DNA of 64,000 nt from an uncultured Dehalococcoidales bacterium (GCA_964485235.1 CAZAIO010000001.1:8657-72656); one strand, 5' to 3'; counted from the first letter of the stretch, positions 2,902 to 63,724 are shown. Program-made: numbers and translations. Notes: a model not told the origin generated them from the sequence alone.

Positions 2902-2918
2902 TTTCACTGGAGGTATAA

Positions 2919-3404
2919 ATGAAAGATAATTTAAAAGATCTAAAATTCACAGTAAACGGCAAATCATACGAATTTAAAATTAAACCAAGAACATTGCTCG
3001 TCGACCTTCTACGGGACAAGATGAAACTTCTGGGCACGAGAAAAGGCTGTCTGACCAGCTCCTGCGGCGCCTGTACCGTAAATATCGACGGCAGAGCGGT
3101 CCGGTCATGTTCCGTCTTGGCGCTACAATGCAACGGGCGGGAGATTGTTACCATTGAAGGCGTTGCCGACGGCGACAACCTGCATCCGATCCAGGAAGCG
3201 ATGATCAATCATGGCGCAATCGAATGCGGTTTCTGCACTTCAGGCATGATCATGTCCGCCAGAGCATTGCTCCTCGAAAATCCAAAACCTACACGTGAAG
3301 AGGTCAGAACCGCTATTCAGGGCAATCTCTGTGCCGATTCAGGTTACATTAAATACGTCGAGTCGATAGAAATAGCCGCTGAAAAGATGAGAGGAGGGCA
3401 ATAA
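2919..3404 (+). CDS. [2Fe-2S]-binding small subunit (CoxS/CutS-like).
   Basis: Cysteine motifs CxxxxCxxC (GCLTSSCGACTV) and CGFCT, typical of the two 2Fe-2S domains. Length 161 aa. Confidence 0.85.
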   Translation: MKDNLKDLKFTVNGKSYEFKIKPRTLLVDLLRDKMKLLGTRKGCLTSSCGACTVNIDGRAVRSCSVLALQCNGREIVTIEGVADGDNLHPIQEAMINHGAIECGFCTSGMIMSARALLLENPKPTREEVRTAIQGNLCADSGYIKYVESIEIAAEKMRGGQ

Positions 3405-3405
3405 T

Positions 3406-5748
3406 ATGTCTGAACAATTTGGAAATTATAGAATTCTCGGCAAGCCTATGGTGAGAGTCGATGCCCGCCTTAAGGCAACGGGACAGGCAAGGTATGCCAA
3501 TGACCTGGAAAAACCCGATATGTTATGGTGCTGGGTAAAACGTTGCCCTTATCCTCATGCGAGAATATTGAATATCGATACCAGCAAAGCAGAAAATTTA
3601 CCGGGCGTTAGAGCGGTGATTACCGGTAAAGACTTCAACGGTTTCCGCTGGGGCTGGAGCCGTGATACCAGAGACGAAGATCCCCTCGCAGTAACCAAAG
3701 CGCGATATCTTGACGAGGGCGTAGCAGCAGTTGCCGCCATCGATGAAGAGACAGCACAGGAAGCCTGCGATCTGATAGAAGTCGAATATGAAGTACTTCC
3801 CGGCGTCTACGATCCTTTCGAGGCAATGGCAGCAGGAGCACCGCTCGTCCATGACGACCGCCCCGGAAACGTTTGTCTTGAATACCACTGGAATTTCGGC
3901 GATGTCGAAAAAGCATTCAATGAATCATATATCGTCAAAGAAGACAAGTTCCAGACACCCCGTATGGCAAAAGGGTATGTCGAACCGTCGGCAGGACTTT
4001 GCTACTGGCCGGACGACAGACATATCGTTTATGAAGCATCGAAAGGAAGCCCTTACTTCCCTTATCGTATTCTCGCCAACTGCTTCAACTTACCGTTAAG
4101 CAACGTTCGTGTAATTCAGCCTTTCATCGGCTGTGACTTCGGCGGTACAAAGAACGATATGGTCAACGGCGATTTTTCTACTGCTATGCTGTCGAAGATA
4201 ACCGGCAAACCGGTCAAATTCCAGTATACACAGTATGACGAGCTGACCACATGCCTGCGCCGCCATCCCATGTGGATCAACATGAAGCTCGGCGTCGATA
4301 AGAAAGGACTGCTTACTGCATGTAAGATAGACCTGGTCTCAGACGGAGGCGCATATACCCGTATGAGCCCGCTCACCCACTTCCTTGCAGGCATCTGTCA
4401 CGGACTTCCTTATCATCTGCCGAACTATAAATACGATGCAGTCTGTTACTTCACCAACAACTGCAGCTCAGCAGCCATGAGAGGACACGGCATTTACCAT
4501 ACCAGATTTGCCGGTGATATCCTCATGGACATGATCGCTGAAGAAATGGGCATGGACCCCATTGATTTCAGGATGATAAACTCTATTGACAATCCGAAGC
4601 CGGGCACCGTCTACAAGACCATCAATGATGTCACTGTCGGTTCCTGCGGTATGAAAGAATGTCTGGAAGAGCTTAAAGAAGCACGAAGCTGGAAAGCCTC
4701 ACATAAGAAAGATGAAGACAAAGACTACATCGCCTACGGCACTGGCTATGCAGCAGCATGCTACAACGGTGGAACCAAGCTCAGCGCACATAACAGCTGC
4801 GCCGCCATTATTCGCGTATGCGAAGACGGAAGCATCAACTACCTTACCGGCGCAAGTGACGTCGGTCAGGGTTCCGATACAGTCTGCGTCGCTATCGCTG
4901 CGGAAGTGATCGGCGTCGATATCGAGGATATCGATATCAAGAGAGTCGACACGGCACACACTCCGGTCGATCCGGGCAGCTACGGCAGCCGTGTAACCGT
5001 ACTCGCCGGTTCTGCTGCAAAGGTAGCAGCCGAAGATACACGACGACAGCTTATCGAAGTTGCTGCCAGACTCCTCGAAGCAAAAGAGGACGAAGTAGAC
5101 ATTAAAGACAAGAAAGCGTTCCTGATAGCCAATCCCGAGCGGAGCATTCCGTGGATCCGATTGGTCAGAGCTGCCTGTTACGATACTCCGGGCAAGGTCA
5201 TCATAGGCCGTGGCTATTCTACACAGGGTATCTCGGTATACGGTCTTGCTGACTTCAGTAAAGGCGTTGGCGACATCGGTACCAACTACAGCTTCTCGGC
5301 ACAGGCCACTGAAGTTGCAGTAGATATGGAAACCGGTGTAGTCACCTGTACCGATAACAGCATCATGTCACATGACTGCGGTTTCCCGTTGAACCCCATT
5401 GCGGTCGAAACACAGGTACTCGGCGGAGGATACCATCAGGGTATCGCGGCTGCCCTCTATGAAGAGTTCAAGATGGACAACGGGCAAACGATGAACCCCA
5501 ACTTTGTAGACTACAAACGTCCCCGCGCATACGAGGCACCTGCTACCGTAGTAAAACATGTGATCACGCATGACCCGTTCGGCCCGTATGGTGCAAAGGA
5601 AGCCAGTGAAGGTACCACCTGTACTGCACCACCGGCACTCATCAGCGCCATTCACGATGCCACCGGTGTCTGGATCAATGACCTTCCCGCAGAGCCGGAG
5701 AAAGTTTTCTGGGCACTTAAAGCAAAGCGTGACAAAGAAAAGAAATAA
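3406..5748 (+). CDS. Molybdopterin-binding large subunit of an aldehyde oxidase / xanthine dehydrogenase family enzyme (CoxL-like).
   Basis: 780 aa. Its start overlaps the stop of the upstream gene (ATAATATG). Aldehyde-oxidase/XDH a/b hammerhead and molybdopterin-binding regions are recognisable. Confidence 0.85.
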   Translation: MSEQFGNYRILGKPMVRVDARLKATGQARYANDLEKPDMLWCWVKRCPYPHARILNIDTSKAENLPGVRAVITGKDFNGFRWGWSRDTRDEDPLAVTKARYLDEGVAAVAAIDEETAQEACDLIEVEYEVLPGVYDPFEAMAAGAPLVHDDRPGNVCLEYHWNFGDVEKAFNESYIVKEDKFQTPRMAKGYVEPSAGLCYWPDDRHIVYEASKGSPYFPYRILANCFNLPLSNVRVIQPFIGCDFGGTKNDMVNGDFSTAMLSKITGKPVKFQYTQYDELTTCLRRHPMWINMKLGVDKKGLLTACKIDLVSDGGAYTRMSPLTHFLAGICHGLPYHLPNYKYDAVCYFTNNCSSAAMRGHGIYHTRFAGDILMDMIAEEMGMDPIDFRMINSIDNPKPGTVYKTINDVTVGSCGMKECLEELKEARSWKASHKKDEDKDYIAYGTGYAAACYNGGTKLSAHNSCAAIIRVCEDGSINYLTGASDVGQGSDTVCVAIAAEVIGVDIEDIDIKRVDTAHTPVDPGSYGSRVTVLAGSAAKVAAEDTRRQLIEVAARLLEAKEDEVDIKDKKAFLIANPERSIPWIRLVRAACYDTPGKVIIGRGYSTQGISVYGLADFSKGVGDIGTNYSFSAQATEVAVDMETGVVTCTDNSIMSHDCGFPLNPIAVETQVLGGGYHQGIAAALYEEFKMDNGQTMNPNFVDYKRPRAYEAPATVVKHVITHDPFGPYGAKEASEGTTCTAPPALISAIHDATGVWINDLPAEPEKVFWALKAKRDKEKK

Positions 5749-12050: not shown

Positions 12051-12743
12051 ATGTGGCAAACAGTCCCGTGCCATCAATGTGGTGCTCCCAATTATATAGG
12101 ACAACGTTTTTGTAATAAATGCGGTGCGCAGCTCATTATGACCTGCCCCTATTGCGGAGCAAGTCACAGCCCGGGGCTCCGGTTTTGCAATAATTGCGGG
12201 GCAACTCTGTCAGGGCCGCCGGTGCCGGGTTATATGCCTGCACAACCAGGTATTATAGACCAGGCCCAGATGTGGGTACAAAATGCCATAAGACGTCTTT
12301 TGGCACTCCCTATAAGTACACTGCTGATAATTTTACTATGCGGTATCGTTATAATAATAGGCGGTTTTTTATTCTGGCAGTTTGGCCCCGGCATCAAACA
12401 ACCCGATAAAAAAGCTCCCTATATTTCAAATGTAGCAGTAACCTTCGTAGGAAAATATTCAGCGACAATTGTGTGGTATACGGATGAACCTTCCAGCAGC
12501 CAGGTAGAATATGGCAGAAGTACACAATATGGTCTGGTATATCCCGCACAACCTCAGGATGATCCGACGCAGGGATATGAGGGAGTTACAAAACATATTA
12601 TTAACCTGACCAGGCTCCCCTCAAATGCCACGCATCATTTCAGGGTGAAATCAATAGACGCGGATAATAACGAACAGGTATCCGGAGATTACACATTTAA
12701 AACCAAGGACGTTGAATCGTTTTTCCAGCCAGCCGACGATTAG
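12051..12743 (+). CDS. Double zinc-ribbon membrane protein with a C-terminal fibronectin-III-like ectodomain.
   Basis: Four CxxC pairs in the first 55 aa, one transmembrane helix, and a C-terminal Fn3-like region similar to the N-terminal domain of purple acid phosphatases. Confidence 0.5.
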   Translation: MWQTVPCHQCGAPNYIGQRFCNKCGAQLIMTCPYCGASHSPGLRFCNNCGATLSGPPVPGYMPAQPGIIDQAQMWVQNAIRRLLALPISTLLIILLCGIVIIIGGFLFWQFGPGIKQPDKKAPYISNVAVTFVGKYSATIVWYTDEPSSSQVEYGRSTQYGLVYPAQPQDDPTQGYEGVTKHIINLTRLPSNATHHFRVKSIDADNNEQVSGDYTFKTKDVESFFQPADD

Positions 12744-24469: not shown

Positions 24470-24770
24470 CGCAATTAAATAATGTAAAGGCTTTGAGCAA
24501 GACTAGTAAATCTTATGCGAAGCTACAGAGAACCGGGTTAGCTGGAAACCGGTGCCAGCGGTAAGGTTGAATGGACTTGGGAGCCGCAAACCGAAAGAGC
24601 AGATACTTGAGTAGGCTTTGACGCAAAGGGTAGCGTTATCACAATCCAGGGTATCACTTCACATGTTGTGAAGCCGTACCTGAAAGAGACAGTCGAAAGA
24701 CTAACAAGGGTGGTACCGCGAAAGCAAGCCTCTCGCCCCTTGAGCGAGAGGCTTATTTTTTTACACGGGA
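24470..24770 (+). promoter_or_regulatory. T-box riboswitch leader, probably with a Trp (UGG) specifier, ending in a terminator.
   Basis: Canonical T-box sequence aacaaGGGTGGTACCGCG at 24703-24720. Terminator aagcctctcgc-ccctt-gagcgagaggctt followed by eight T at 24726-24766. Stem I region with an AGAGA motif and GAAUGGA / UGGA candidate specifier contexts. Confidence 0.7.
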
Positions 24771-24886
24771 GGAAAAGATGGCAGATGTAATAATAAAGAT
24801 GTGGCCCCTGAGGGGCCTTAAGTTCGATTAAACTATTATATGTCCCGTTCTCTATTAATAAAAACTTATTATTGAAAGGAGTGAAA

Positions 24887-26248
24887 ATGGAACGATACAA
24901 GTATGTTTTAGATGAAAAAGAGATGCCGACTCAATGGTATAATATCCAGGCAGATTTTCCGGAACCTTTACCCCCGGTACTGCATCCCGCCACGGGAAAT
25001 CCGGTTACACCGGATGATCTTGCGCCTCTCTTTCCAATGGAATGCATCATGCAAGAGGTAAGTACAGAGCGGTGGATTGAAATCCCCGAGGAAGTACAGG
25101 ATGTTTATAAGACATGGAGGCCAACAGTTTTACACCGTGCCCACCGGCTCGAAAAGGCCCTGGACACACCCGCAAAGATTTTCTATAAATATGAGGGGAC
25201 CAGTCAGGCAGGAAGCCATAAACCCAATACTGCCATCGCACAAGCGTACTACAACAAAAAAGAAGGCATCAAGAGAATAACGACAGAGACCGGTGCCGGT
25301 CAGTGGGGCAGCGCACTATCACTCGCCGGTGCATTCTTCGGAATTGAAATAAAAGTATATATGGTCTCTGTAAGCTATCACCAGAAGCCTTATCGCCGGA
25401 TCATGATGGAAGTATGGGGAGCCAAGTGTGTTCCCAGCCCAAGCCGTGATACAAAAGCAGGACGGGATGCACTGGCAAAGGACCCGAACAGTCCGGGTAG
25501 CCTTGGCCTGGCAATCAGTGAAGCTGTGGAAGAATGCGTCTCCCGCGATGATACCCATTATTCTCTCGGGAGCGTACTGAACCACGTCCTGTTACACCAG
25601 ACCATCAACGGGCTTGAGACAAAGATATTAATGGAACGGGCGGGCGTCTACCCTGATATCATTATCGGATGTGTCGGTGGAGGATCTAACTTTGCCGGAA
25701 TGTTCCTGCCGTTTCTTAAAGACAAAATCGAGGGCAAAAAGCCCGATCTGCGAATAATTAACGTAGAACCGGCAAGTTGTCCGACGTTGACTAAAGGCCC
25801 TGACGCCTATGATTTCGGAGATGTGTCCGGTCTTACTCCATTGATGAAGATGTATACACTGGGCCATGATTTTATGCCGCCTCCGGTTCATGCCGGCGGA
25901 CTGCGCTATCATGGTATGGCACCCATTATCAGCCATTGTCTGCGTCTCGGACTCGTCGAAGCAAGAGCCGAGCATCAACTGGATACCTTTGAAGCAGGTA
26001 TAACTTTCGCTCGCACTGAAGGTATAATCAGCGCTCCGGAAACCAACCATGCCATCAGGACAACGATAACTGAAGCTCTGAAATGTCGCGAATCAGGCGA
26101 AGCAAAGGTCATTTTAATGAACCACAGCGGACATGGCCATGTTGATATGGCTGCTTATGAAGCCTATCTGTCGGGTAAACTTCAGAACTACGAATATCCC
26201 GAAGAACTGGTAAAGGAAGCACTGACTCATTTACCTAAAGTAGGCTAA
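24887..26248 (+). CDS. trpB2: TrpB2-type tryptophan synthase beta-like PLP enzyme.
   Basis: N-terminus [30 protein letters not shown], typical of the TrpB2 clade. A PLP lysine lies in the [11 protein letters not shown] context. RBS aaaggag. Confidence 0.85.
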
Positions 26249-53430: not shown

Positions 53431-54159
53431 TTAAGGTATCAAAATGCAGTCCTTCATTTTCACAGACATAAAATAACCATCGCATTTTCCCTCTATAGTC
53501 ACTATATCACCGGGCTCGAGGCCGGATACTTCTGAGCCATGTTGCCCGTCGAACGTGCACTGGATTTCCCAGTCCTCAATACTGCCTCCGGATAATTTGA
53601 TAAAATATATCCCCATGATATTCTTATTAACACTGCTCACCTTACCTGTCACTTCTAAAACTTTACCTTTATAAAGGTTATCTGCCGCTACCTCGTCTTT
53701 CGCATAATCATCGCTTAACTTTTCAGCAGTAAGTTCAAACGCAACATTGCCCAGAGTTGCCGGTGCAGTTTGTGGTGTACTCTGTCCGGACTTTCCCTGC
53801 AAAAATGAATCTATAGCAAAGACCGCGGTAATACATAACATGATCACAATAAACCCTACAAGCCAGGGGGTAGCGGGATTCCGTGTCATTCCTGACGGTT
53901 TCTGCTTCTTCTCAGGCTTCTTTTCATTCAGCTCGGAGGATTTATCGCCGTTAGGAACCGGCTCCGGTTCTACCTCCTGGTCAGCTTTGATTCCCCAATC
54001 AAGCGCAACGCCGCAATTCGGACACGCATTATAATCGGCGCTGATATTTGCCCTGCACTGCGGGCATTTATAATGAAACGGTTCCCCGCAACGAATACAA
54101 AAACGGTTCCCTAGATTATTCTGTTCTCCACATTTATAACATTGCACTAATTGCTGCAT
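53431..54159 (-). CDS. Double zinc-ribbon membrane protein with a C-terminal OB-fold (tRNA_anti-like) ectodomain.
   Basis: Same cysteine-pair pattern in the first 55 aa as the ORF at 12051, a Pro/Glu-rich linker, and a transmembrane helix. Confidence 0.5.
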   Translation of the reverse strand: MQQLVQCYKCGEQNNLGNRFCIRCGEPFHYKCPQCRANISADYNACPNCGVALDWGIKADQEVEPEPVPNGDKSSELNEKKPEKKQKPSGMTRNPATPWLVGFIVIMLCITAVFAIDSFLQGKSGQSTPQTAPATLGNVAFELTAEKLSDDYAKDEVAADNLYKGKVLEVTGKVSSVNKNIMGIYFIKLSGGSIEDWEIQCTFDGQHGSEVSGLEPGDIVTIEGKCDGYFMSVKMKDCILIP

Positions 54160-54448: not shown

Positions 54449-55396
54449 TTAATCAAGAGCGATATTGGATAGACCGGCAGTCATTGTAGGCATGATCTTA
54501 AACATCTCTTCTACATCGAATGCGCCATCCTTGAAAGCAATCTTCTCCTCATCCATATAGTTAAAAATACTTACACGGCCTTCCATTACAAGGAAAATAT
54601 GACCGTTCACTTTGGACGATTCCTTGCTCGATAGCCAGCATACGGCTGGACCGATAGCTTCCGGTGAACCGCCGATAAACTTCTTTTTCAATTCGTCAAT
54701 AGGCAACGTATCGGCCCCCTCTATACCACGGCTTGCAGCGAGTGTCCGCATTCTATCATCAGGAATTGAATCGGATATCTGGGTAAGCGCACGTGGTACT
54801 ATTGCGTTACATGTAATTCCCGACTTCCACAGGGCCAGCGCACAGGAGTAGGTGAAACCGATCACACCTGCTTTAGCAGCACTGTAATTCGGCTGTCCGA
54901 CGTTTCCTTTTATCGCTGCATATGAGCTGCCATTAATAATTCGTCCGTATTCCTGTTTACCCTCTTTGATAGCATCTCTCATATGCCGTACTGCTTCCCT
55001 GGTACAATAGAAATGCCCGTACAGGTGTGTCTTTATGACCTGGTCCCATTCCTCATCGGTCATATTCCACAACATTCGGTCCTTGATAATACCTGCATTA
55101 TTTACCAGAATATCTATCCTGCCAAAATTATCTATAGCTGTTTTTATGATATTATTTGCACTTTCCGGATTGTCCACCGAATCGTAGTTCGCAACCGCAA
55201 TACCTCCGCTACTCTTTATTTCCTCAACCACTTCATCGGCTACCATTGGTGTTTTCGGATTTCCGCTGGTTGATTTGCTCCGGGCATTGATTACCACTTT
55301 TGCACCTTCTGCAGCCATCCCCATAGCAATGCCTTTGCCAATCCCTCTTCCACTCCCCGTTACGACAGCTACTTTGTCTTTTAACCTGTCAGCCAT
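54449..55396 (-). CDS. SDR-family dehydrogenase (17β-HSD4 / MFE-2 N-terminal-like 3-hydroxyacyl-CoA dehydrogenase type).
   Basis: TGSGRGIG, NNAG, Y-x3-K (YSAAK). 315 aa with a C-terminal extension. Confidence 0.7.
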   Translation of the reverse strand: MADRLKDKVAVVTGSGRGIGKGIAMGMAAEGAKVVINARSKSTSGNPKTPMVADEVVEEIKSSGGIAVANYDSVDNPESANNIIKTAIDNFGRIDILVNNAGIIKDRMLWNMTDEEWDQVIKTHLYGHFYCTREAVRHMRDAIKEGKQEYGRIINGSSYAAIKGNVGQPNYSAAKAGVIGFTYSCALALWKSGITCNAIVPRALTQISDSIPDDRMRTLAASRGIEGADTLPIDELKKKFIGGSPEAIGPAVCWLSSKESSKVNGHIFLVMEGRVSIFNYMDEEKIAFKDGAFDVEEMFKIMPTMTAGLSNIALD

Positions 55397-55746
55397 ATTA
55401 TTTTCCTCCTGAATTATCTTTGTGAATATATTATTTACCTGTCATTACCGACAGGTTGAGTATAACGTGCAGACAGATGTTATGATAGCAGAATAATATC
55501 CCCGACTACAATGGTAAGCGTATTATTTATTATTATCACATCGTATAGTTGCAAAGGCTCGTAAAGTTATGTAATTGTCTTGACACGATAACATATAATA
55601 TAGGCTAGAAACAGACTTAAGTAATTCATGCTGGAGTCTCCGCTTTCACCGTCGTGTTGCGCTGTCGGCTTTTCATATATTATAGATAGCCTGCGACATA
55701 CGTATACACGCCATAAAAAAATATATATTAAACATCTTTACATGAA

Positions 55747-56730
55747 ATGAAAATTGTAGTTACCGGTGCTTCAGGGCACCTCGGCGCCAACTTAATACGG
55801 ACACTTCTGGATAAAGGCGAGGATCTTACAGCCCTCACTCATATCGACCATCGCGCTCTTGATGGACTTGATATAAAAACGGCATCATGTGATATTTGTG
55901 ATCCTGCGTCAATGCACGGGGTATTCGAAGGGGCGGATATTGTGTTCCACGCAGCAGGACATATCTCAATATTGATGCACGAACAACACAAATTTGAAAT
56001 GATAAACGTAACGGGCACACAAAATGTTGTCGAGGAATGTCTTCATAGTGGGGTCCGGCGTCTGGTGTATTTCAGCTCGATCCATGCATTTGAACAGGAA
56101 CCGTTCGATATGCTGCTTGATGAATCACGTCCTCTGGTAAAAAAAAGCCGGAAAAGCTTACCTTATGATATGTCAAAAGCCGCTGCAGAAAGGGAAATCC
56201 GGAAAGGAATAGAAAAAGGGCTGGATGCCGTAATAATCAATCCTACGGCAATTATTGGCCCATATGATTTCCGCCCTTCTCACTGTGGCGAAGCGATCCT
56301 TTTAATGGCCCGGGGTAAACTACCGTCGCTGGTTTCCGGTGGATTTAACTGGGTTGATGCACGGGATGTTGCTGCCGGTGCGATTAATGCAGCGCAAAAA
56401 GCCGCGTGCGGCGAAAAATACCTGCTATCAGGTCACTGGGTATCGGTACGGGATATGGCGACACTTGTCCAGGAAATAACCGGAAAACGCGCACCGCGTG
56501 TTACATGTCCGCTGTGGCTTGCATCTGCCGGAACACCGTTTATCGCATTGTCTTCCCGGTTGACCGGTAAACGTCCGTTATATACTCCTGTATCGCTAAA
56601 AGCCTTATATAGCAATCGTCATATCAGCCATCAAAAAGCGACAAATGATCTCGATTATCATCCCCGGCCGTTTAGAGATACGATTATCGATACACTCCGC
56701 TGGTTTAAAGAGTACGGATATCTGGATTAA
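55747..56730 (+). CDS. NAD(P)-dependent epimerase/dehydratase, extended-SDR family (3β-HSD / NSDHL-like).
   Basis: N-terminal VTGASGHLG Rossmann motif. 327 aa extended-SDR length. A YxxxK is present. Confidence 0.65.
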   Translation: MKIVVTGASGHLGANLIRTLLDKGEDLTALTHIDHRALDGLDIKTASCDICDPASMHGVFEGADIVFHAAGHISILMHEQHKFEMINVTGTQNVVEECLHSGVRRLVYFSSIHAFEQEPFDMLLDESRPLVKKSRKSLPYDMSKAAAEREIRKGIEKGLDAVIINPTAIIGPYDFRPSHCGEAILLMARGKLPSLVSGGFNWVDARDVAAGAINAAQKAACGEKYLLSGHWVSVRDMATLVQEITGKRAPRVTCPLWLASAGTPFIALSSRLTGKRPLYTPVSLKALYSNRHISHQKATNDLDYHPRPFRDTIIDTLRWFKEYGYLD

Positions 56731-56754
56731 AATTCAACATCCAGCGTAATTTAA

Positions 56755-57516
56755 ATGAACGAAAGAATTTTTTTTAATAGACTTATTATCGCATGGATGA
56801 TTATTGCGCTTGTCATCTTTATAGTACTCATTTTTATCAACGCTCCATACGGACGGCATACCCGGAAAGGATGGGGACTTACCATCGACAGCAGAATTGC
56901 ATGGATGGTTATGGAATCAGTATCGCCACTGGGATTCGCGGTCTGCTTCTGGCTGGGAAACAATGTCAAGACAGTCACACTGGTGGTCTTTTTATGTATG
57001 TGGGAAGCACATTATATACACAGGGCTTTTATCTATCCTTTTAGTTTGAACTCGGTAGTCAAACGGATGCCCGTACTGATTATCGTATTTGCGATTATAT
57101 TCAACACAGGAAACGCCTATCTAAACGGTCGTTACCTGTTTACATTCGCGCCTCCCTATTCTAATGAATGGCTCACCGATCCCAGATTTATCTTCGGTTT
57201 CTTGCTTTTCGTCGGCGGTTTCGTTATAAACCGGAGTGCCGATAATATACTTCGTTCACTTCGTGGGCCGGGTGAACAGGATTATAAAATACCTTATGGC
57301 ATGTTATATCATTGGATCTCCAGTCCGAACTACCTGGGTGAAATATTAATATGGGTTGGTTGGGCGATCGCAACGTGGTCTTTACCGGGTGTTGCTTTTG
57401 CGCTGTGGACCATTGCAAATCTTGTACCGCGCGCCCGGGCTCACCATATGTGGTATAAAGAACATTTCAACAATTATCCTCCTGAACGCAAGGCTTTGAT
57501 ACCGCTGATATGGTAA
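56755..57516 (+). CDS. 3-oxo-5-alpha-steroid 4-dehydrogenase (SRD5A / polyprenol reductase) family membrane reductase.
   Basis: Polytopic membrane protein. The C-terminal block (LRGPGEQDYKIPYGMLYHWISSPNYLGEILIWVGWA...RARAHHMWYKEHFNNYPPERKALIPLIW) matches the conserved C-terminal domain of steroid 5α-reductases. Confidence 0.65.
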   Translation: MNERIFFNRLIIAWMIIALVIFIVLIFINAPYGRHTRKGWGLTIDSRIAWMVMESVSPLGFAVCFWLGNNVKTVTLVVFLCMWEAHYIHRAFIYPFSLNSVVKRMPVLIIVFAIIFNTGNAYLNGRYLFTFAPPYSNEWLTDPRFIFGFLLFVGGFVINRSADNILRSLRGPGEQDYKIPYGMLYHWISSPNYLGEILIWVGWAIATWSLPGVAFALWTIANLVPRARAHHMWYKEHFNNYPPERKALIPLIW

Positions 57517-57748: not shown

Positions 57749-58345
57749 ATGAGTTCTTCAATTTCGGCGATTATCCTTGCTGCTGGAAAATCAACACGGA
57801 TGGGCACGCAAAAATTGTGCATGTCGCTCGGTGAACATACCATACTGGAACAAACTGTTGACAATTATCTCGATTCAAAAGTCGATGAGATCATAGTCGT
57901 CATAGGGCATGAAGCACAAAGGGTCCGGCAACTTATCGATAGAAAACCGATCACTATAGTTTATAATCATAGCTATGACAAAGGTATGAGCACGTCAATT
58001 ATATCCGGGCTGCAATATGTTAAAAAGACTACGCAAAGCGTCATGATTGCGCTGGGAGACCAACCTTATATTCACAGCGGCATAATCAATCTCATTATCG
58101 ACACACATAAAAAAAGTCCTAAAGGTATTACTGTACCGGCATATAAAGGAAATAGAGGCCATCCTGCTATTTTCAATATGTCCTATAAGGAAGAACTGCT
58201 TCACCTCGAAGGCGATACAGGAGGAAAACAGATAACAGATAGACATCCTGACGATGTCCTTGAAATAGATGTCGAGTTCGAAGAGATTATTGCGGATATC
58301 GACACTATAGATACCTATAATCAAACAATGAATAAGTTTAAATAA
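57749..58345 (+). CDS. MobA/MocA-like nucleotidyltransferase. Putative molybdenum cofactor cytidylyltransferase.
   Basis: N-terminal ILAAGKSTRMG and a conserved LGDQP motif. Confidence 0.55.
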   Translation: MSSSISAIILAAGKSTRMGTQKLCMSLGEHTILEQTVDNYLDSKVDEIIVVIGHEAQRVRQLIDRKPITIVYNHSYDKGMSTSIISGLQYVKKTTQSVMIALGDQPYIHSGIINLIIDTHKKSPKGITVPAYKGNRGHPAIFNMSYKEELLHLEGDTGGKQITDRHPDDVLEIDVEFEEIIADIDTIDTYNQTMNKFK

Positions 58346-58471: not shown

Positions 58472-60082
58472 TTGAGTTGCCAAGGAAAAGTAATGTACGA
58501 ACTGAACGATAGACCATGGTTCAAGCACTGGCCGGAAAGTGTACCAAGGCATATAGACTATCCTGAGATACCGTTATATGCCCTGCTTACGGAAACCGCA
58601 GAAAGATATCCCGATGCGATAGCGTTTAACAATAAAATTGACAGCATAACTTACGCCGAGCTTGACAAAGCAACCGATAAGCTTGCCGCTGCGCTTATCG
58701 ATAATGGTATAAAAAGAGGAGATACCGTCGTTCTTTTTCTGCCCAACAGTTTTGAATTCGTCATAGGTTACTACGGAATTTTGAAAGCCGGCGCGAGCGT
58801 TGTGCCTGTTAATCCCTTATATAAAGGAGAGGAACTAAAATTCCAGATCAACGATTCGGAAGCCTCTGCAATTATCGCTGATGCCGATTCTCTTTCTACT
58901 GTACAGGCAATCAGGAATAGCACAGGGTTAAAATTTGTGGTCATCTCCGGTATATCGAAGTCAGAAAAAGTTATCTCATTGCAGACAATTTTGGATGAAT
59001 ATGATTCTGCGCTTTTCAGCCCTGTGAAAATCGATCCGATGGAAGACATCGCCGCAATAGAATATACCGGTGGAACGACCGGTCCTCCCAAGGGCGCAAT
59101 GTTGACACACTTTAACCTGGTAGCCAACGCGATACAAAATGCCGTATGGCTCGGTTGGAGCCACCGAGACATCATTGTAGGGCTTCTGCCTTTCTATCAC
59201 AGCTGGGGCGCATGCACATGTGTCAACTCCGCCATTTATTCCGGTTCCCGTGTCATTATAATCACCAGGTTCGATGCGGAAGACCTGCTTGATACAATTC
59301 AAAGAGAGAAAGCTACCATACTTTACGGTGCCGCATCGATGTTCACCATGCTGGTAGCAAATCCCGTGCTTACACAGTATGATTTATCCAGCTTGAAATG
59401 TGTAAAAGCCGGCGCAATGCTTATTCCCGCTGAAACAAAATCTAAATGGGAGCAGATCACCGGAGTGACAATGGTTCTCGGGTATGGCCTCAGTGAGGCC
59501 AGTCCGGAGACTCATGATTCCCCGCTGGACAGGATAGTACCTGAAACAATTGGTATACCGATCATGGACACCGATGCACGCATTGTCGATGAAAAAACAG
59601 GACTGACAGATATGCCGCTCGGCAAGACCGGAGAACTTATCATTCGTGGCCCTCAGGTAATGAAAGGATATCTTAAACGTCCCGATGAAAATATAGCGGC
59701 ACTCCGTGATGGATGGTTATATACCGGCGACCTTGCTACCATGAGCGAAGATGGTTACTTCCGAATAATCGATAGAAAAAAAGAGATAATCAAATATAAA
59801 GGCTACACTATCGCACCGGGCGAAGTGGAGTCAGTACTCTACCAGCACAATGCAATAAAGGAATGTGCAGTTGTAGGCAGACCCGACCCTGCTTTCGGAG
59901 AAATACCAAAAGCATTTGTTGTATTGCTTGAAGGATACGATGCCTCTGCCGAGGAAATAATCGAATTCTGCAAACAGAGAATTTCCCCCTATAAAAGGAT
60001 TCGTGAAGTAGAATTCGTCGATGAAATCCCTAAAAGCAAGGTCGGAAAAGTATTGAGAAGGCTTCTCAGAGATCGGCATTAG
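58472..60082 (+). CDS. AMP-dependent synthetase/ligase (acyl-CoA synthetase).
   Basis: AMP-binding signature YTGGTTGPPKGA, and TGD ... K at the C-terminus. Confidence 0.85.
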   Translation: MSCQGKVMYELNDRPWFKHWPESVPRHIDYPEIPLYALLTETAERYPDAIAFNNKIDSITYAELDKATDKLAAALIDNGIKRGDTVVLFLPNSFEFVIGYYGILKAGASVVPVNPLYKGEELKFQINDSEASAIIADADSLSTVQAIRNSTGLKFVVISGISKSEKVISLQTILDEYDSALFSPVKIDPMEDIAAIEYTGGTTGPPKGAMLTHFNLVANAIQNAVWLGWSHRDIIVGLLPFYHSWGACTCVNSAIYSGSRVIIITRFDAEDLLDTIQREKATILYGAASMFTMLVANPVLTQYDLSSLKCVKAGAMLIPAETKSKWEQITGVTMVLGYGLSEASPETHDSPLDRIVPETIGIPIMDTDARIVDEKTGLTDMPLGKTGELIIRGPQVMKGYLKRPDENIAALRDGWLYTGDLATMSEDGYFRIIDRKKEIIKYKGYTIAPGEVESVLYQHNAIKECAVVGRPDPAFGEIPKAFVVLLEGYDASAEEIIEFCKQRISPYKRIREVEFVDEIPKSKVGKVLRRLLRDRH

Positions 60083-60468: not shown

Positions 60469-61854
60469 ATGAAAAAGTACATAATGCTGATTGTGATAGC
60501 CCTGTTATCTATTATGTTAACTACCACAGGCTGTCAGTATCTACCGGGAGACTTTACTAGACTGGTGAGGACAAATGATCCGCCGGTAGCATATATCGAT
60601 TCCATTTCACCTACACAGGCCACTTCCGGTAAGACAATAACTTTCATTGGTCACGGAACAGATACAAATGGAAACGTCGTCGCTTACAGATGGCAATCAG
60701 ATATTGACGGCGAGTTAAGCGTCAAAGATACCTTCCAAACATCGACGCTTTCCAGCGGACACCATACTATACAGTTCAAGGTACAGGACAATAATGGTGA
60801 ATGGTCTGAAGAAATTAGTGGTACCCTCATAATACAGGATGATTCATCATCACTGCCGGTTATCAGTTTTTTCACGGCAAATCCGACTAATATATTCAAA
60901 GGCAATTCCTCGAAGATCAGTTGGGAAGTATTAAATGCTTCCACAGTCACAATTCAACCGGAAATCAGTGAAGTATCGCTCACAGGCGATAAAACAATAT
61001 CGCCGGTCAATACTACAACATATACACTTGTTGCAAGTAATGAAAAGGGAAGCGTTAATACCTCAATAAAAATCACCGTCGCCTCCACATACACAGGGTT
61101 TCCGACCATCAACTCTTTTGTCGCCAGCCCTGCAATTATCGCTTCGGGTGGTATTTCAACTTTAAGCTGGAATGTATCCGATGCGACAAAAGTATCAATA
61201 AGCCCGGGAATAGGTACTGTCTCTTCATCAGGAAGCAAAGCTATAGCTCCTGTAAATACAACGAATTACACCATTACAGCATACAACTCGACCGGACAGG
61301 TCAGCTATAACATAAGCGTAGTTGTGATGTCGTTACCATTGTCCGAATACACTGTAATCATCGAGCCGGTAACTAATGAAAGTGGTTATATACAGAGCAA
61401 TGGAGATGCATGGCCGACACTGATATATGTAGGAGATACGAATGACAACCTCGCGATACAGTCTTTCCTGAGTTTCAACATATCCAGTATTCCCTCTGGA
61501 GCGATAGTCCGGAATGTGATAGTGGACTTCTCGGATTACAGCTCTGTCGAGGGTACTCCATTCAGCGACCTGGGATGTGTAAGAGCATTCGTTCATAATT
61601 ACGGTACGCTGGACAGTGGGGATTACTTTGTCGGCACCCAGCAGGAGCAGCTTTTTCAATACTGCTCTACAGGTGAAATGAGTTCATATACCAGTAGCAA
61701 GGTGAAAAGCGCCCTTCAAAGCAAAATAGGGACATCACGATTTCAGATACGCTTGCAATTTTCCGAACGTGAGACCGACGGTGAAAATGATGACGACCTG
61801 ATACACTGGTCGCCTCAAAACATGAAGCTTATCGTCACCTATACGACAGCATAA
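60469..61854 (+). CDS. Surface lipoprotein with tandem Ig-like/PKD-like domains.
   Basis: Lipobox TTGC. A repeated module of about 95 aa (LSWNVS...TTYTL.A.N..G.V...I.V). Paralogue of the next gene. Confidence 0.5.
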   Translation: MKKYIMLIVIALLSIMLTTTGCQYLPGDFTRLVRTNDPPVAYIDSISPTQATSGKTITFIGHGTDTNGNVVAYRWQSDIDGELSVKDTFQTSTLSSGHHTIQFKVQDNNGEWSEEISGTLIIQDDSSSLPVISFFTANPTNIFKGNSSKISWEVLNASTVTIQPEISEVSLTGDKTISPVNTTTYTLVASNEKGSVNTSIKITVASTYTGFPTINSFVASPAIIASGGISTLSWNVSDATKVSISPGIGTVSSSGSKAIAPVNTTNYTITAYNSTGQVSYNISVVVMSLPLSEYTVIIEPVTNESGYIQSNGDAWPTLIYVGDTNDNLAIQSFLSFNISSIPSGAIVRNVIVDFSDYSSVEGTPFSDLGCVRAFVHNYGTLDSGDYFVGTQQEQLFQYCSTGEMSSYTSSKVKSALQSKIGTSRFQIRLQFSERETDGENDDDLIHWSPQNMKLIVTYTTA

Positions 61855-62023: not shown

Positions 62024-63724
62024 ATGATGAAAAAATACATGATGCAGATGACAATAATGATGTTGTCTATCATGCTGACAACCAGCGGCTGCCAGTATCT
62101 ACCGGATGAGTTCAATAATATGGTTAAAGCGAATCAGCCGCCCGTAGCTTATATCGATTCAATTTCGCCCACGGAAGCCATGTCCGGAGAAACAATAACA
62201 TTTACCGGTCACGGAACAGGTACATATGGCAATATTATTGCGTATAGTTGGCGGTCAAATATTGATGGTGAGCTAAGCGACAAAGATAGTTTTCAAGCCT
62301 CAACTCTATCAGACGGAAAACATACAATCGATTTCAGAGTACAGGACGATAACGGGGAATGGTCTGAGGAGATGAGCTGTACCCTGATAATCAAGGACAA
62401 CTCATCTTTCCTGCCGGTTATAAATTATTTCACGGCAAACCCAACAAATATAGCACGGGGTAACTCGTCGGAAATCAGCTGGGAAGTATCAAATGCCTCT
62501 TCCGTTGAAATCCAACCCGATATCGGTGAGGTCGCCCTCAACGGTATAAAAACAGTGTCACCAGCCGGTACGACCACGTATACCCTTATTGCTGTTAATG
62601 AGAAAGGAAGCGTTAATACTTCAATTAAAATCACCGAATCGTCGAAAAACGCAGAGCTTCCGACCATTAATTCGTTTTACGCAAGTCCCGCAATAATAAG
62701 ACCGGGAAGCTCTTCGGTCCTTAGCTGGAATATATCAAACGCAACGGGGGTGTCTATCAATCCTGATATAGGGACTGTCGATCTCACCGGTAGTATAACG
62801 GTCACACCAACGGACACGACAGACTATACACTCGTCGCATGTAATAAGACAGGGCAAGTTAACTACAATATCAATGTTATACTGCAATCTTTGGAAAACG
62901 GCTCTTTATTAAGCGAATTGAATCCGGAAGATACACTTACTTTCAATGAGACCACTATCGATGACGATGATAATCAGGAACAATCACAGACAAATCCAAC
63001 TACCGATGTGACACCGCCGGTTATTAAAAAATTAAACGTAACCGCCTTGAATACAAGCGCTATCATAGAATGGACAACCGACGAACCAACTGACGGACAG
63101 GTCTCATACGGCAATACAATGGTACCCGTTAACAGTCAAAAATCAACTAAAAACGACGCACTCCAGCACAGGGTTACTTTGAACGGACTAAAATCCAGGA
63201 CAACATACTACTTCCAGGTTAAAGCCGTGGATGCATCGGGAAATGAAACACTCTCAGACTGGAACAGTTTCACCACTCTTGCTTCTGTAACTACCGGTGT
63301 AGAGGTCGGCAATTTTGCGCCTGACTTTACACTCGATACAATCGCCGGCGATATTATCACGTTAAGTGCGCTGCGGGGTAAACTGGTAATGGTCACTTTC
63401 TGGACAACCTCGTGTGGTGCCTGTGTCGCAGAAATGCCCGATATTCAGGAAGTATATGATACATGGTCGGGCGAAAAAGACCTTGAAATACTCGCCGTGA
63501 ACTCTAAACAGCCTGTTGTTTATGTCCAGCGCTTTCTGGATGAAAGAGAATGGTGCACTATGCCTGTACTATTGGATACTGCAGGCACGGTAGCTCAAGA
63601 ATACCACATTACCACAATACCCAGGACATTCTTTATCGATAGCACCGGTATAATAAGGAAAGTACAGCACGGTCGTTTCCAGGATAAAGATGAAATAATT
63701 GCTATTCTCGATAAACTCAATTAA
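62024..63724 (+). CDS. Surface lipoprotein with Ig-like/PKD-like domains, an Fn3-like domain and a C-terminal TlpA/ResA-type thioredoxin domain.
   Basis: N-terminal 330 aa paralogous to the previous ORF. CxxC active site WTTSCGACVAEMP in a thiol-disulfide oxidoreductase fold. Confidence 0.55.
   Translation: MMKKYMMQMTIMMLSIMLTTSGCQYLPDEFNNMVKANQPPVAYIDSISPTEAMSGETITFTGHGTGTYGNIIAYSWRSNIDGELSDKDSFQASTLSDGKHTIDFRVQDDNGEWSEEMSCTLIIKDNSSFLPVINYFTANPTNIARGNSSEISWEVSNASSVEIQPDIGEVALNGIKTVSPAGTTTYTLIAVNEKGSVNTSIKITESSKNAELPTINSFYASPAIIRPGSSSVLSWNISNATGVSINPDIGTVDLTGSITVTPTDTTDYTLVACNKTGQVNYNINVILQSLENGSLLSELNPEDTLTFNETTIDDDDNQEQSQTNPTTDVTPPVIKKLNVTALNTSAIIEWTTDEPTDGQVSYGNTMVPVNSQKSTKNDALQHRVTLNGLKSRTTYYFQVKAVDASGNETLSDWNSFTTLASVTTGVEVGNFAPDFTLDTIAGDIITLSALRGKLVMVTFWTTSCGACVAEMPDIQEVYDTWSGEKDLEILAVNSKQPVVYVQRFLDEREWCTMPVLLDTAGTVAQEYHITTIPRTFFIDSTGIIRKVQHGRFQDKDEIIAILDKLN

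Follow-up and report, generated by a model that had tools for sequence, protein, structure and literature searches.

A conserved gene pair encoding an extended SDR and an SRD5A-type reductase in a Dehalococcoidales genome: a candidate module for the saturation of sterol-like lipids

Genes for a classical SDR, an extended SDR, and a membrane reductase of the SRD5A family lie side by side in a stretch of 64 kb from an uncultured Dehalococcoidales bacterium (the window, meaning the whole stretch that was analyzed), which raises the question of which of these genes belong together and on what kind of lipid their products act. The first-pass annotation had read them as one trio modifying steroids or polycyclic lipids and had proposed profile searches for PF02544 and PF01073 and a phylogeny against SRD5A3, TECR, and the steroid 5α-reductases. 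The three ORFs lie exactly where it had placed them and belong to the families it had named (PF00106, PF01370/PF01073, and PF02544), with E-values far beyond chance; genes for an acyl-CoA ligase and MocA follow downstream, as it had also stated, with the MocA gene coming first. The features of the region are:

54449-55396, minus strand: classical SDR, 315 aa (PF00106, E=4e-44)
55397-55746, no strand assigned: AT-rich intergenic region of 350 bp located 5' of the pair and shared with the divergent classical SDR gene; presumed promoter region, read from the sequence
55747-56730, plus strand: extended SDR, NAD(P)-dependent dehydrogenase/reductase, 327 aa, soluble; gene 1 of the pair (PF01370, PF01073)
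56731-56754, plus strand: spacer of 24 nt from the extended SDR gene to the SRD5A gene, read from the sequence
56755-57516, plus strand: putative SRD5A1/2/DET2-type polytopic membrane NADPH-dependent enone (3-oxo-Δ4) 5α-reductase, 253 aa; gene 2 of the pair (PF02544)
57749-58345: MocA gene (TIGR03310 above its cut-off)
58472-60082: acyl-CoA ligase gene, after the MocA gene

The functional unit is a two-gene operon consisting of the extended SDR gene and the SRD5A gene, and not the trio. Related loci comprised 84 cases, namely 80 GTDB species-level loci and 4 metagenomic ones. An orthologue of the partner SDR is encoded directly upstream of the SRD5A gene and on the same strand in 31 of the 80 species loci (about 39%, more than ten phyla), suggesting that the SRD5A ORF is functionally coupled to a 3β-HSD-like extended SDR. 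The tandem is also present in all 4 metagenomic relatives, and 7 more loci harbor an SDR of the same clade nearby in rearranged order or other orientations. Hosts of the tandem include Chloroflexota, Bacteroidota, Marinimicrobia, Gemmatimonadota, Latescibacterota, Acidobacteriota, Myxococcota, Alpha- and Gammaproteobacteria, and one archaeal member of the Thalassarchaeaceae. In the related loci, the distance between the two genes ranges from an overlap of 4 nt to a gap of about 60 nt, and the pairwise identities of the two proteins correlate with r=0.76, a value that is confounded by shared species phylogeny. No third conserved neighbor of the pair was found across these loci. In the window, the spacer of 24 nt is consistent with co-transcription, and no terminator-like site was found between the two genes. 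For the upstream region 55397-55746, no specific promoter element was established; its σ70-like matches are weak and, with 19 against a shuffled expectation of 13.7 ± 3.6, not above expectation in number.

The reductase matches PF02544 (Steroid_dh) over profile positions 2-150 of 150 (E=3.5e-52; 176.8 bits against a cut-off of 22.6), which bears out the early impression of a clear SRD5A-type C-terminal domain. It aligns end to end with the bacterial enzyme PbSRD5A (PDB 7c83; residues 12-252, E=1.7e-70) and over residues 17-252 with human SRD5A2 (7bw1; E=1.9e-44). In BLASTP comparisons with reference sequences that were verified by exact look-up and also used for the tree, identities are 46% to PbSRD5A (231 residues), 40% to SRD5A1, 39% to SRD5A2, and 35% to DET2; these full-length matches reach 154-218 bits as against 52-61 bits for SRD5A3 and TECR. 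Human SRD5A3 matches only the C-terminal 145 residues (108-252; 28% identity, 52 bits) and human TECR only the C-terminal 102 residues (61 bits), while the C. elegans TECR art-1 reaches E=1e-11 and 48 bits. In the proposed phylogeny, computed as an NJ tree, 85 of 100 bootstraps unite the window reductase and the other prokaryotic sequences with SRD5A1/2/DET2 and keep SRD5A3 and TECR separate. With 253 aa, the window reductase is close in length to SRD5A1/2 (254-259 aa; 254-262 aa with DET2 included), whereas SRD5A3 has 318 aa; SRD5A3 and DFG10 are extended in their N-terminal half. The hydropathy of the window reductase is that of a polytopic protein with multiple TM segments. Assignments to other subfamilies fail: for SRD5A3/polyprenal reductases, similarity is confined to the C-terminus and the protein lies outside the SRD5A3 branch, and for TECR/very-long-chain enoyl-CoA reductases, only the C-terminus matches and the N-terminal ubiquitin-like extension is missing. 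An identity as ICMT, PEMT, or DUF1295 protein was likewise rejected, as PF04191 (24.7 bits, cut-off 25) and PF06966 (22.3 bits over a stretch of 68 residues, cut-off 20.4) are far outscored by PF02544. As far as the protein is concerned, the counter-case put forward at the outset, in which ORF 56755 would be an ICMT- or DUF1295-like protein devoid of the catalytic residues, did not hold, as PF02544 dominates and the residues are intact. Judged by its sequence, the window reductase is a seven-helix membrane protein of the SRD5A1/2/DET2 type.

Bacterial 5α-reductases had been described as rare and poorly characterized, which is not borne out, and the claim of rarity is wrong. More than 7,570 homologues were found, and at least 266 matches were confirmed among contigs representing one genome per species. 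For bacterial members, a crystal structure and enzymology are available with PbSRD5A (7c83), which reduces progesterone (Han et al. 2021, PMC7815742), and a Bacteroides 5α-reductase reduces 3-oxo-Δ4-LCA (bioRxiv 10.1101/2021.01.08.425963). Furthermore, a homologue from Leifsonia complements the det2 mutation of Arabidopsis, and 5α-reductase activity is present in Treponema denticola. Active relatives include ones that share about 46-48% identity with the window reductase. As the family is common and already characterized in bacteria, the pair is only moderately new.

In human numbering, the catalytic Glu and Tyr are E57 and Y91, and the Gln of the QEY motif is Q56. Mutagenesis has defined these catalytic Glu and Tyr residues together with the NADPH residues N160, D164, R171, N193, E197, R227, H231, and Y235 (PMC7815742). 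The window reductase keeps the catalytic pair as E54 and Y87 and all eight NADPH residues as N159, D163, R170, N192, E196, R226, H230, and Y234. The residues are largely conserved among 69 aligned prokaryotic homologues, with E, Y, N192, E196, R226, and Y234 being essentially invariant and the H231-equivalent often being N, T, Y, or S. The Gln of the QEY motif, which belongs to the features of the subfamily, is replaced by M53. Met occupies this position in 84 of 84 related loci, with the complete motif M-E...Y in 83 of them, and the Leifsonia locus has the same motif. In human SRD5A2, exchange of this Gln for Ala or Leu abolished activity (PMC7815742). As the verified sequence of Arabidopsis DET2 reads V-M-E-S and thus also has Met, the exchange in the window reductase points to a DET2-like variant and not to a loss of function. 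The enzyme would probably use NADPH to reduce a 3-oxo-Δ4 steroid and thereby form the 5α product.

The partner SDR scores above the cut-off of the 3β-HSD profile PF01073 (E=1e-24, 87.5 bits; cut-off 22) and higher still with PF01370 (Epimerase; E=6e-30, 104.8 bits). It has the extended-SDR motifs G7-x2-G-x2-G13, S110, and Y140-x3-K144 and no TM segment. Among solved structures, it matches PDB 3wj7 with E=9e-46 and, modestly, human NSDHL (6jkg) with E=3e-12. Within NCBIfam, it reaches 232.5 bits with the hopanoid-associated sugar epimerase HpnA (TIGR03466; cut-off 367.65) and 216.9 bits with the sterol demethylase protein SdmB (NF052578; cut-off 600), to which it aligns over its full 327 residues. 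It belongs to neither family because it stays below both curated cut-offs, and by sequence it is closest to these two, placing it in an HpnA/SdmB-like clade. Both of these named families have triterpenoids as their substrates. The same pattern is found elsewhere, as HpnA is the top NCBIfam match for every partner SDR tested from other loci (158-241 bits, all below 367.65), and annotation of these proteins is generic. An identity as SdmB was also rejected with regard to gene context, as no Rieske gene (SdmA) is located nearby in the window; no Rieske-like genes were found among the 25 most frequent of 97 Pfam families in 82 flanking ORFs from 33 paired loci. Regarding HpnA, the window encodes no hpn or shc genes. 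SdmB-type enzymes oxidize lanosterol to lanosterone and reduce 3-ketones (PMC10202945). For the partner SDR, oxidation of a 3β-hydroxysteroid with Δ5 to Δ4 isomerization is assumed.

An intact SRD5A1/2/DET2-type reductase that is coupled to a 3β-HSD-like SDR makes the reduction of a Δ4-3-keto polycyclic lipid the best reading of the locus. Of the substrates suggested by the first-pass annotation, this one is thus retained on the grounds of sequence and gene pairing, whereas polyprenol reduction of the SRD5A3 type is disfavored in view of the 52 bits with SRD5A3 and the position in the tree. With a probability of roughly 0.5, the pair oxidizes the 3-hydroxy group, reduces the Δ4-double bond, and re-reduces the 3-ketone of a sterol-like lipid, thereby converting a stenol into a 5α-stanol. 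The families of both proteins, the preserved catalytic residues, and the recurring gene pair are shown, whereas activity, order of steps, and, most of all, the natural substrate are inferred. Briefly, the SDR would oxidize a sterol-type lipid dissolved in the membrane at its 3β-hydroxyl, so that a 3-ketone forms, and the double bond would become conjugated to give a Δ4-3-one. Enzymes of the SRD5A1/2/DET2 type reduce the C=C bond of an α,β-unsaturated carbonyl with NADPH, a Glu, and a Tyr; in this case, C5 would receive a hydride from NADPH and C4 a proton from Glu54, leading to the 5α-3-ketone. Subsequently, the same SDR or a host enzyme would reduce the 3-ketone back to the alcohol. The conversion of campesterol to campestanol in plants follows the same stenol-to-5α-stanol logic. 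Because most host lineages are not known as sterol producers, the substrate would be an exogenous sterol or steroid derived from eukaryotes. Genes for squalene/oxidosqualene cyclase, steroid degradation, or prenyl pathways were not found within the 64-kb window, and neither there nor, among the 25 most frequent of 97 Pfam families, in the flanks of the 33 paired loci were genes for sterol uptake, sterol synthesis, or steroid catabolism detected. Carriers of the module include many free-living lineages from plankton and sediments for which no sterol biology is known, so that a substrate other than a sterol is conceivable.

Two alternatives involve the neighboring genes. The classical SDR could form a three-enzyme pathway for steroid rings A and B with the pair, to which the acyl-CoA ligase may add side-chain activation. 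The three genes are adjacent, and a 5α-reductase cluster of gut Bacteroidetes sometimes has an inserted putative 17β-HSDH (bioRxiv 10.1101/2021.01.08.425963). The solved relatives of the classical SDR do include human 17β-HSD4 (1zbq, 7e-52), but the best is the MFE-2 (3R)-hydroxyacyl-CoA dehydrogenase 2et6 (1e-77). With its motifs TGSGRGIG, NNAG, and S157...Y171-x3-K175, the protein is of the MFE-2/17β-HSD4 type (261 bits with the NCBIfam entry PRK07791, below the cut-off of 373) and closest to (3R)-hydroxyacyl-CoA dehydrogenases/FabG-type proteins, not to steroid-ring enzymes. Its gene is located on the opposite strand and recurs near an SRD5A gene in only 1 of the 84 related loci, there two unrelated genes away from the pair. 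The syntenic close relative L002 keeps the classical SDR in the same region with 78% identity, separated from the SRD5A gene by a DegV gene and another ORF, but this region is a conserved housekeeping synteny block with UvrA, an AI-2E transporter, and a zinc-ribbon protein. Neither MocA nor the acyl-CoA ligase is conserved with the pair, as the ligase recurs once, about 5 kb off (L081), and MocA in the nearest relative only. A pathway of all three enzymes is thus improbable, and the classical SDR, MocA, and the acyl-CoA ligase are bystanders. The SRD5A-family protein might also be a TECR-like enoyl-thioester reductase in a fatty-acyl pathway with the classical SDR and the acyl-CoA ligase, in keeping with the shared Pfam family, the match to art-1, and the acyl-CoA-type annotations of the neighbors. 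This is highly improbable, as the similarity to human TECR and art-1 is confined to the NADPH-binding C-terminus, the substrate-side Glu and Tyr and the N-terminal half align with steroid reductases, and the acyl-CoA genes show no conserved association with the SRD5A gene.

Other alternatives retain the pair and change its substrate. In a detour like that of DHRSX and SRD5A3, the SDR would oxidize polyprenol to polyprenal, the SRD5A protein would saturate the α-isoprene unit, and the SDR would then yield a dolichol-like carrier lipid. The scheme of two enzymes and three steps is exactly the same (PMC11250103), the autonomous module is located in housekeeping contexts, and homologues are present in archaea with dolichol-type carriers (Heimdallarchaeota, Hermodarchaeota, and Thalassarchaeaceae). 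However, similarity to SRD5A3 is weak and C-terminal, both protein length and position in the tree agree with SRD5A1/2, the partner SDR is of the extended type and falls into the SdmB/HpnA clade, and a tandem restricted to about 39% of the SRD5A-bearing species loci would be unexpectedly patchy for an essential carrier-lipid step, making this detour unlikely. An endogenous non-sterol triterpenoid or isoprenoid, either hopanoid-related or an α,β-unsaturated carbonyl of the carotenoid/retinoid type, could be the substrate if the SDR were HpnA-like, as the uniform top rank of HpnA among the partner SDRs might indicate. The host groups also include SAR86, Flavobacteriales, Marinimicrobia, and MGII archaea, which are rhodopsin-bearing lineages that handle retinal, an enal. 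Against this stand the HpnA scores, which are all below the cut-off, and the window and the 82 flanking ORFs, in which no squalene-hopene cyclase or hpn genes were found (25 most frequent of 97 Pfam families). To our knowledge, hopanoids do not carry a 3-oxygen function, and the retinoid idea is without direct support, so that we give little credence to such a substrate.

It is conceivable, and suggested here tentatively, that the widespread extended-SDR/SRD5A pair is the microbial system by which Δ5-stenols are hydrogenated to 5α-stanols at oxic-anoxic interfaces and in anoxic sediments; its carriers would then include Dehalococcoidia, Anaerolineales, Marinimicrobia, Latescibacterota, Bacteroidota, and MGII archaea. 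The stanol/stenol ratio serves as a geochemical proxy for anaerobic microbial transformation (PMC7292411). Should the suggestion be true, the pair would be a genetic marker for this ratio as well as for the initial step in sterane diagenesis.

Among known systems, PbSRD5A (7c83) has the same fold and belongs to the same family as the window reductase, with 46% identity over 231 residues and identical catalytic Glu and Tyr and eight NADPH-contacting residues; it has Q-E-Y, whereas Met stands at the position of the Gln in the window reductase and in all 84 related prokaryotic loci. SRD5A1, SRD5A2, and DET2 resemble the window reductase in length and catalytic residues with 35-40% full-length identity, and the M-E variant is found in DET2 as well. 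The substrate of DET2, in the branch leading from campesterol to campestanol, is a full-length, sterol-derived 3-oxo-Δ4 compound. In contrast to these three enzymes, the window reductase is prokaryotic and its gene shares an operon with that of an extended SDR, with no hormone pathway.

For the partner SDR, the closest functionally characterized family is that of SdmB (217 bits) and SdmC, the SDRs of sterol C-4 demethylation, whose chemistry of sterol 3β-hydroxyl oxidation and 3-ketone reduction is the one proposed here (PMC10202945). Unlike SdmB, the window pair has no adjacent SdmA Rieske oxygenase and instead an SRD5A reductase. In DHRSX and SRD5A3, one SDR and one SRD5A-family reductase also bring about the net saturation of an allylic alcohol, which is oxidized, reduced at its C=C bond, and then re-reduced (PMC11250103), but the reductase is from another SRD5A subfamily, the substrate is linear and not polycyclic, and the eukaryotic genes are unlinked. 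The isoalloLCA cluster of Bacteroidetes likewise combines an SRD5A1 homologue with a 3β-HSDH in a bacterial gene cluster; its 5α-reductase produces a 5α-3-ketone, which the 3β-HSDH reduces to the 3β-alcohol (bioRxiv 10.1101/2021.01.08.425963). This cluster has a BaiCD-like 5β-reductase as a third gene, whereas no flavin/old-yellow-enzyme-type reductase is encoded beside the window pair and none was found among the 25 most frequent of 97 Pfam families in the 82 flanking ORFs. Its 3β-HSDH was found by homology to Rumgna_00694 of R. gnavus, while the window partner is an HpnA/SdmB-like extended SDR. Finally, the isoalloLCA system serves gut bile acids, whereas carriers of the SDR/SRD5A module are environmental Chloroflexota and members of many other phyla.

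The SRD5A-family reductase gene and its neighbors are arranged in the window as follows:

54449-55396, minus strand: classical SDR, 315 aa (PF00106, E=4e-44)
55747-56730, plus strand: extended SDR, here called the partner SDR, 327 aa (PF01370, 6e-30; PF01073, 3β-HSD family, 1e-24)
56755-57516, plus strand: SRD5A-like reductase, here called the window reductase, 253 aa (PF02544, 176.8 bits, cut-off 22.6)
57749-58345, downstream of the reductase gene: MocA, molybdenum cofactor cytidylyltransferase (TIGR03310 above its cut-off)
58472-60082, after the MocA gene: acyl-CoA ligase

The first three ORFs, which the first-pass annotation had grouped as a trio, lie exactly where it had placed them, and the MocA and acyl-CoA ligase genes follow in the order it gave. 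The matches to PF02544 and PF01073 that it had proposed as checks were both obtained, and PEMT and DUF1295 matches to the window reductase are marginal only. The classical SDR contains the motifs TGxxxGxG, NNAG, and S...YxxxK. Among solved structures, it is closest to MFE-2 in its (3R)-hydroxyacyl-CoA dehydrogenase domains (2et6, 1e-77) and to human 17β-HSD4 (1zbq, 7e-52), and numerous FabG enzymes rank next.

The subfamily of the window reductase was assessed against human SRD5A1, SRD5A2, SRD5A3 and TECR as well as Arabidopsis DET2, each confirmed by exact look-up in a protein collection. Among solved structures, PbSRD5A (7c83) aligns with residues 12-252 (E=1.7e-70) and human SRD5A2 (7bw1) with residues 17-252 (E=1.9e-44), and the TECR homolog art-1 matches the C-terminal half only (E=1e-11). 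BLASTP gives the same picture: PbSRD5A scores highest (46%, 218 bits, 231 residues, q22-252), followed over the full length by human SRD5A1 (40%, 170 bits), DET2 (35%, 158 bits), and human SRD5A2 (39%, 154 bits), and in the C-terminal part only by human TECR (35%, 61 bits) and human SRD5A3 (28%, 52 bits). The phylogeny proposed in the first-pass annotation, calculated by NJ only from 69 prokaryotic homologs and the references, places the window reductase and the other prokaryotic proteins with SRD5A1/2/DET2 and apart from SRD5A3 and TECR in 85/100 bootstraps, with no internal resolution in the SRD5A1/2/DET2-plus-prokaryote group. The window reductase is a new addition to a well-known family of solved structure.

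Through structural work and mutagenesis, Han et al. assigned to this family a catalytic Q-E-Y motif (human Q56, E57, Y91) along with eight residues that bind NADPH (PMC7815742). The window reductase retains E54 and Y87 together with 8/8 NADPH residues (N159, D163, R170, N192, E196, R226, H230, Y234), which excludes an ICMT or DUF1295 protein devoid of catalytic residues, the case that the first-pass annotation had set against its own assignment. The Gln of the motif is replaced by M53 (M53-E54 codons at window 56911-56916). Gln is found at this position in PbSRD5A and human SRD5A1/2; Met-Glu...Tyr is found in 83/84 related prokaryotic loci, the exception having Phe for Tyr. As the confirmed sequence of Arabidopsis DET2 likewise reads VMES, M53 is regarded as a DET2-like variant and not as a sign of inactivation. 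Since exchange of the Gln for Ala or Leu abolishes the activity of human SRD5A2 (PMC7815742), Met at this position may modulate how the substrate is handled.

The view that 5α-reductases are rare and poorly characterized in bacteria could not be upheld. A homolog search with the window reductase returned at least 7,570 significant matches, with Chloroflexi and Dehalococcoidia as the closest named homologs among the matches listed, and scanning GTDB with each species represented by a single genome gave at least 266 confirmed matches. Bacterial hosts among the best 80 of these at least 266 are Chloroflexota, Spirochaetota, Bacteroidota, Myxococcota, Actinomycetota, Marinimicrobia, SAR86, Gemmatimonadota, Acidobacteriota, Latescibacterota, and others; archaeal hosts are Heimdall- and Hermodarchaeota and one Thalassarchaeaceae archaeon. 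Several members have been assayed: PbSRD5A reduces progesterone (PMC7815742), the Bacteroides dorei 5α-reductase reduces 3-oxo-Δ4-LCA (bioRxiv 10.1101/2021.01.08.425963), a Leifsonia homolog rescues Arabidopsis det2, and Treponema denticola provides a further experimentally supported member. The Leifsonia study describes the natural role of SRD5A homologs beyond gut and host-associated bacteria as still unknown. The archaeal homologs, encoded in MAGs of Heimdall-/Hermodarchaeota (loci L014, L016, L048, L081) and Thalassarchaeaceae (L029), are of the SRD5A1/2/DET2 type and 44-52% identical to the window reductase; among them, the SDR partner stands in tandem only in the MGII locus L029. They may be informative about where the eukaryotic steroid reductases came from, or about lateral transfer between organisms living in sediments.

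Comparison of the window proteins with 84 related loci by tblastn revealed a conserved gene pair. In 4/4 metagenomic relatives, the SRD5A gene is immediately preceded by a same-strand ortholog of the extended SDR gene, and this tandem also occurs in 31/80 GTDB species loci (the best 80 of at least 266) from over ten phyla plus one archaeal family. The spacing in related loci ranges from a 4-nt overlap to a gap of ~60 nt and is 24 nt in the window, where a scan detected no terminator-like site between the two genes; promoter and terminator counts around the pair were not above shuffled expectation. In seven more loci (four SAR86, one Actinomycetota, one Brevinema, one Crocinitomicaceae), an SDR of the same clade adjoins the SRD5A gene in other orientations. 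Sequence identities of the two proteins, compared pair by pair, are correlated (r=0.76); this favors joint inheritance, though the value is confounded by phylogeny. When the 870 ORFs of 85 loci were clustered all against all, no shared family emerged beyond the two, and among 82 flanking ORFs scanned no Pfam family occurred in more than 3/33 paired loci. Cytochrome P450 and GT4 glycosyltransferase each occur in 3/33 of these flanks. A putative natural SDR-SRD5A fusion of 596 aa (L049:4954-6744, from a high-GC genome) was rejected, its N-terminal part being an out-of-frame Arg-rich artifact.

The classical SDR does not share this conservation. It recurs only in L002, a locus of a close relative in which the whole syntenic block with UvrA, an AI-2E transporter, and a zinc-ribbon protein is shared, and in that locus it is set apart from the pair by a DegV gene plus a further ORF. 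Within the 84 loci, MocA is found near the pair again only in the nearest relative, and the acyl-CoA ligase recurs once, ~5 kb off. From the interpretation in the first-pass annotation, the reductase family and its linkage to the extended SDR are therefore retained, and the trio as a unit is given up along with the rarity. Based on gene order, the functional unit is a duo, a putative operon of the reductase and a single SdmB/HpnA-like dehydrogenase occurring in many free-living phyla. Such a conserved operon of SRD5A and SdmB/HpnA-like SDR across many phyla appears to be undescribed so far.

The pair is embedded in a housekeeping chromosomal region of ~44% GC encoding IleRS, YidC, DnaG, RpoD, Ffh, UvrA, PEPCK, FabF/FabG, PlsY, and PanBC. 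Among the matches listed, the nearest relatives of both pair proteins are from Dehalococcoidia and Chloroflexota MAGs, and the exact window protein is also present in two JGI metagenomes. A Mo-hydroxylase operon of the xanthine-dehydrogenase/CO-dehydrogenase type (window 2026-5748; FAD, 2Fe-2S, and MoCo-binding subunits) lies 52 kb from MocA, which most plausibly serves this enzyme and not the steroid-type genes. A T-box leader (24484-24743; 107 bits, exceeding the gathering score) precedes a PLP-dependent enzyme gene (24872-26248), which would fit a regulatory repertoire of the Chloroflexota or Firmicutes type. A gene of the arylsulfotransferase (ASST) family is located at the window start (103-1290; PF05935 and PF14269, ~1e-22). 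Two paralogous double-zinc-ribbon membrane proteins are encoded at 12051-12743 and 53431-54159; the latter also has a C-terminal tRNA_anti-like OB domain and occupies the same syntenic position in L002. The adjacent paralogs at 60469-61854 and 62024-63724 share near-identical lipoprotein-like N-termini and common repeat modules of ~290 aa. The second has an additional C-terminal region with purple-acid-phosphatase N-terminal (FN3-like) and AhpC/TSA-redoxin domains; for the first, no Pfam family was matched at E<=1e-8.

The partner SDR is a soluble protein in which both the GxxGxxG and the YxxxK motif are intact. Since it scores 232.5 bits against HpnA (cut-off 367.65) and 216.9 bits against SdmB (cut-off 600), it belongs to neither family, and the same pattern was found for eight partner SDRs from other phyla. 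Annotation of the partner SDR family elsewhere goes no further than 'dihydroflavonol-4-reductase' or 'NAD-dependent epimerase'. Enzymes of the SdmB type work on C-3 of full-length sterols: lanosterol is turned into lanosterone by Calothrix SdmB alone, and M. capsulatus SdmB catalyzes a decarboxylation followed by reduction of the 3-ketone (PMC10202945).

Genes for squalene/oxidosqualene cyclase, steroid catabolism, or prenyl pathways were not found within the 64-kb window. Because most host lineages of the pair are not known sterol producers and cyclase genes are absent from the window and from the scanned flanks of 33 paired loci, the substrate is presumed to be an exogenous sterol or steroid. 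We infer that the partner SDR and the window reductase would convert it by oxidizing the 3β-hydroxy group with a shift of the double bond from Δ5 to the conjugated Δ4 position, then carrying out the 5α-reduction, and finally reducing the 3-keto group, with the net outcome that a stenol would become a 5α-stanol.

A role of the pair as a polyprenal reductase system, corresponding to the polyprenol reduction suggested in the first-pass annotation, is disfavored by the placement of the window reductase with SRD5A1/2/DET2 and not with SRD5A3 in both BLASTP and the NJ tree. Subfamily placement also argues against a TECR-like acyl role, which is further disfavored because the acyl-CoA genes show no conserved association with the pair. 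For the pair to act in an HpnA-like manner or on other isoprenoids is considered improbable, and a pathway comprising the whole trio is disfavored by the conservation analysis.

The preferred reading, a two-enzyme converter of stenols into 5α-stanols, is a compact hypothesis that is directly clonable and testable. Anoxic microbial stenol-to-stanol reduction is referred to, in a passage of PMC7292411 citing Wakeham 1989, as a long-used geochemical indicator. A literature search of limited coverage, and hence weak as evidence, found this reduction nowhere linked to the genes of the pair; nothing relevant was found that ties SRD5A-type genes to Chloroflexi or Dehalococcoidia, and a paper on coprostane and IsmA leaves 5α-reductases aside. 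If confirmed, the conversion would reveal which organisms and genes bring about a classic lipid transformation in sediments, help to interpret stanol and sterane biomarkers, and make new 5α-reductases available to steroid biocatalysis. Should the substrate not be a sterol, the pair would represent a new prokaryotic lipid-saturation pathway.

Teams of an SDR and an SRD5A-family reductase are known from two systems that the window pair resembles. In the bile-acid cluster of Bacteroidetes, a 5α-reductase forms the 5α-3-ketone, which is then reduced by a 3β-HSDH (bioRxiv 10.1101/2021.01.08.425963). In the revised dolichol pathway, a single SDR, DHRSX, carries out the first and the last step, oxidizing an allylic alcohol and, once SRD5A3 has saturated the conjugated double bond, reducing the carbonyl (PMC11250103). 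By analogy, the pair fits a DHRSX/SRD5A3-type logic that would operate on the A/B ring of sterols, and the SDR/SRD5A operon would be a variant of the known bacterial steroid-modifying clusters.
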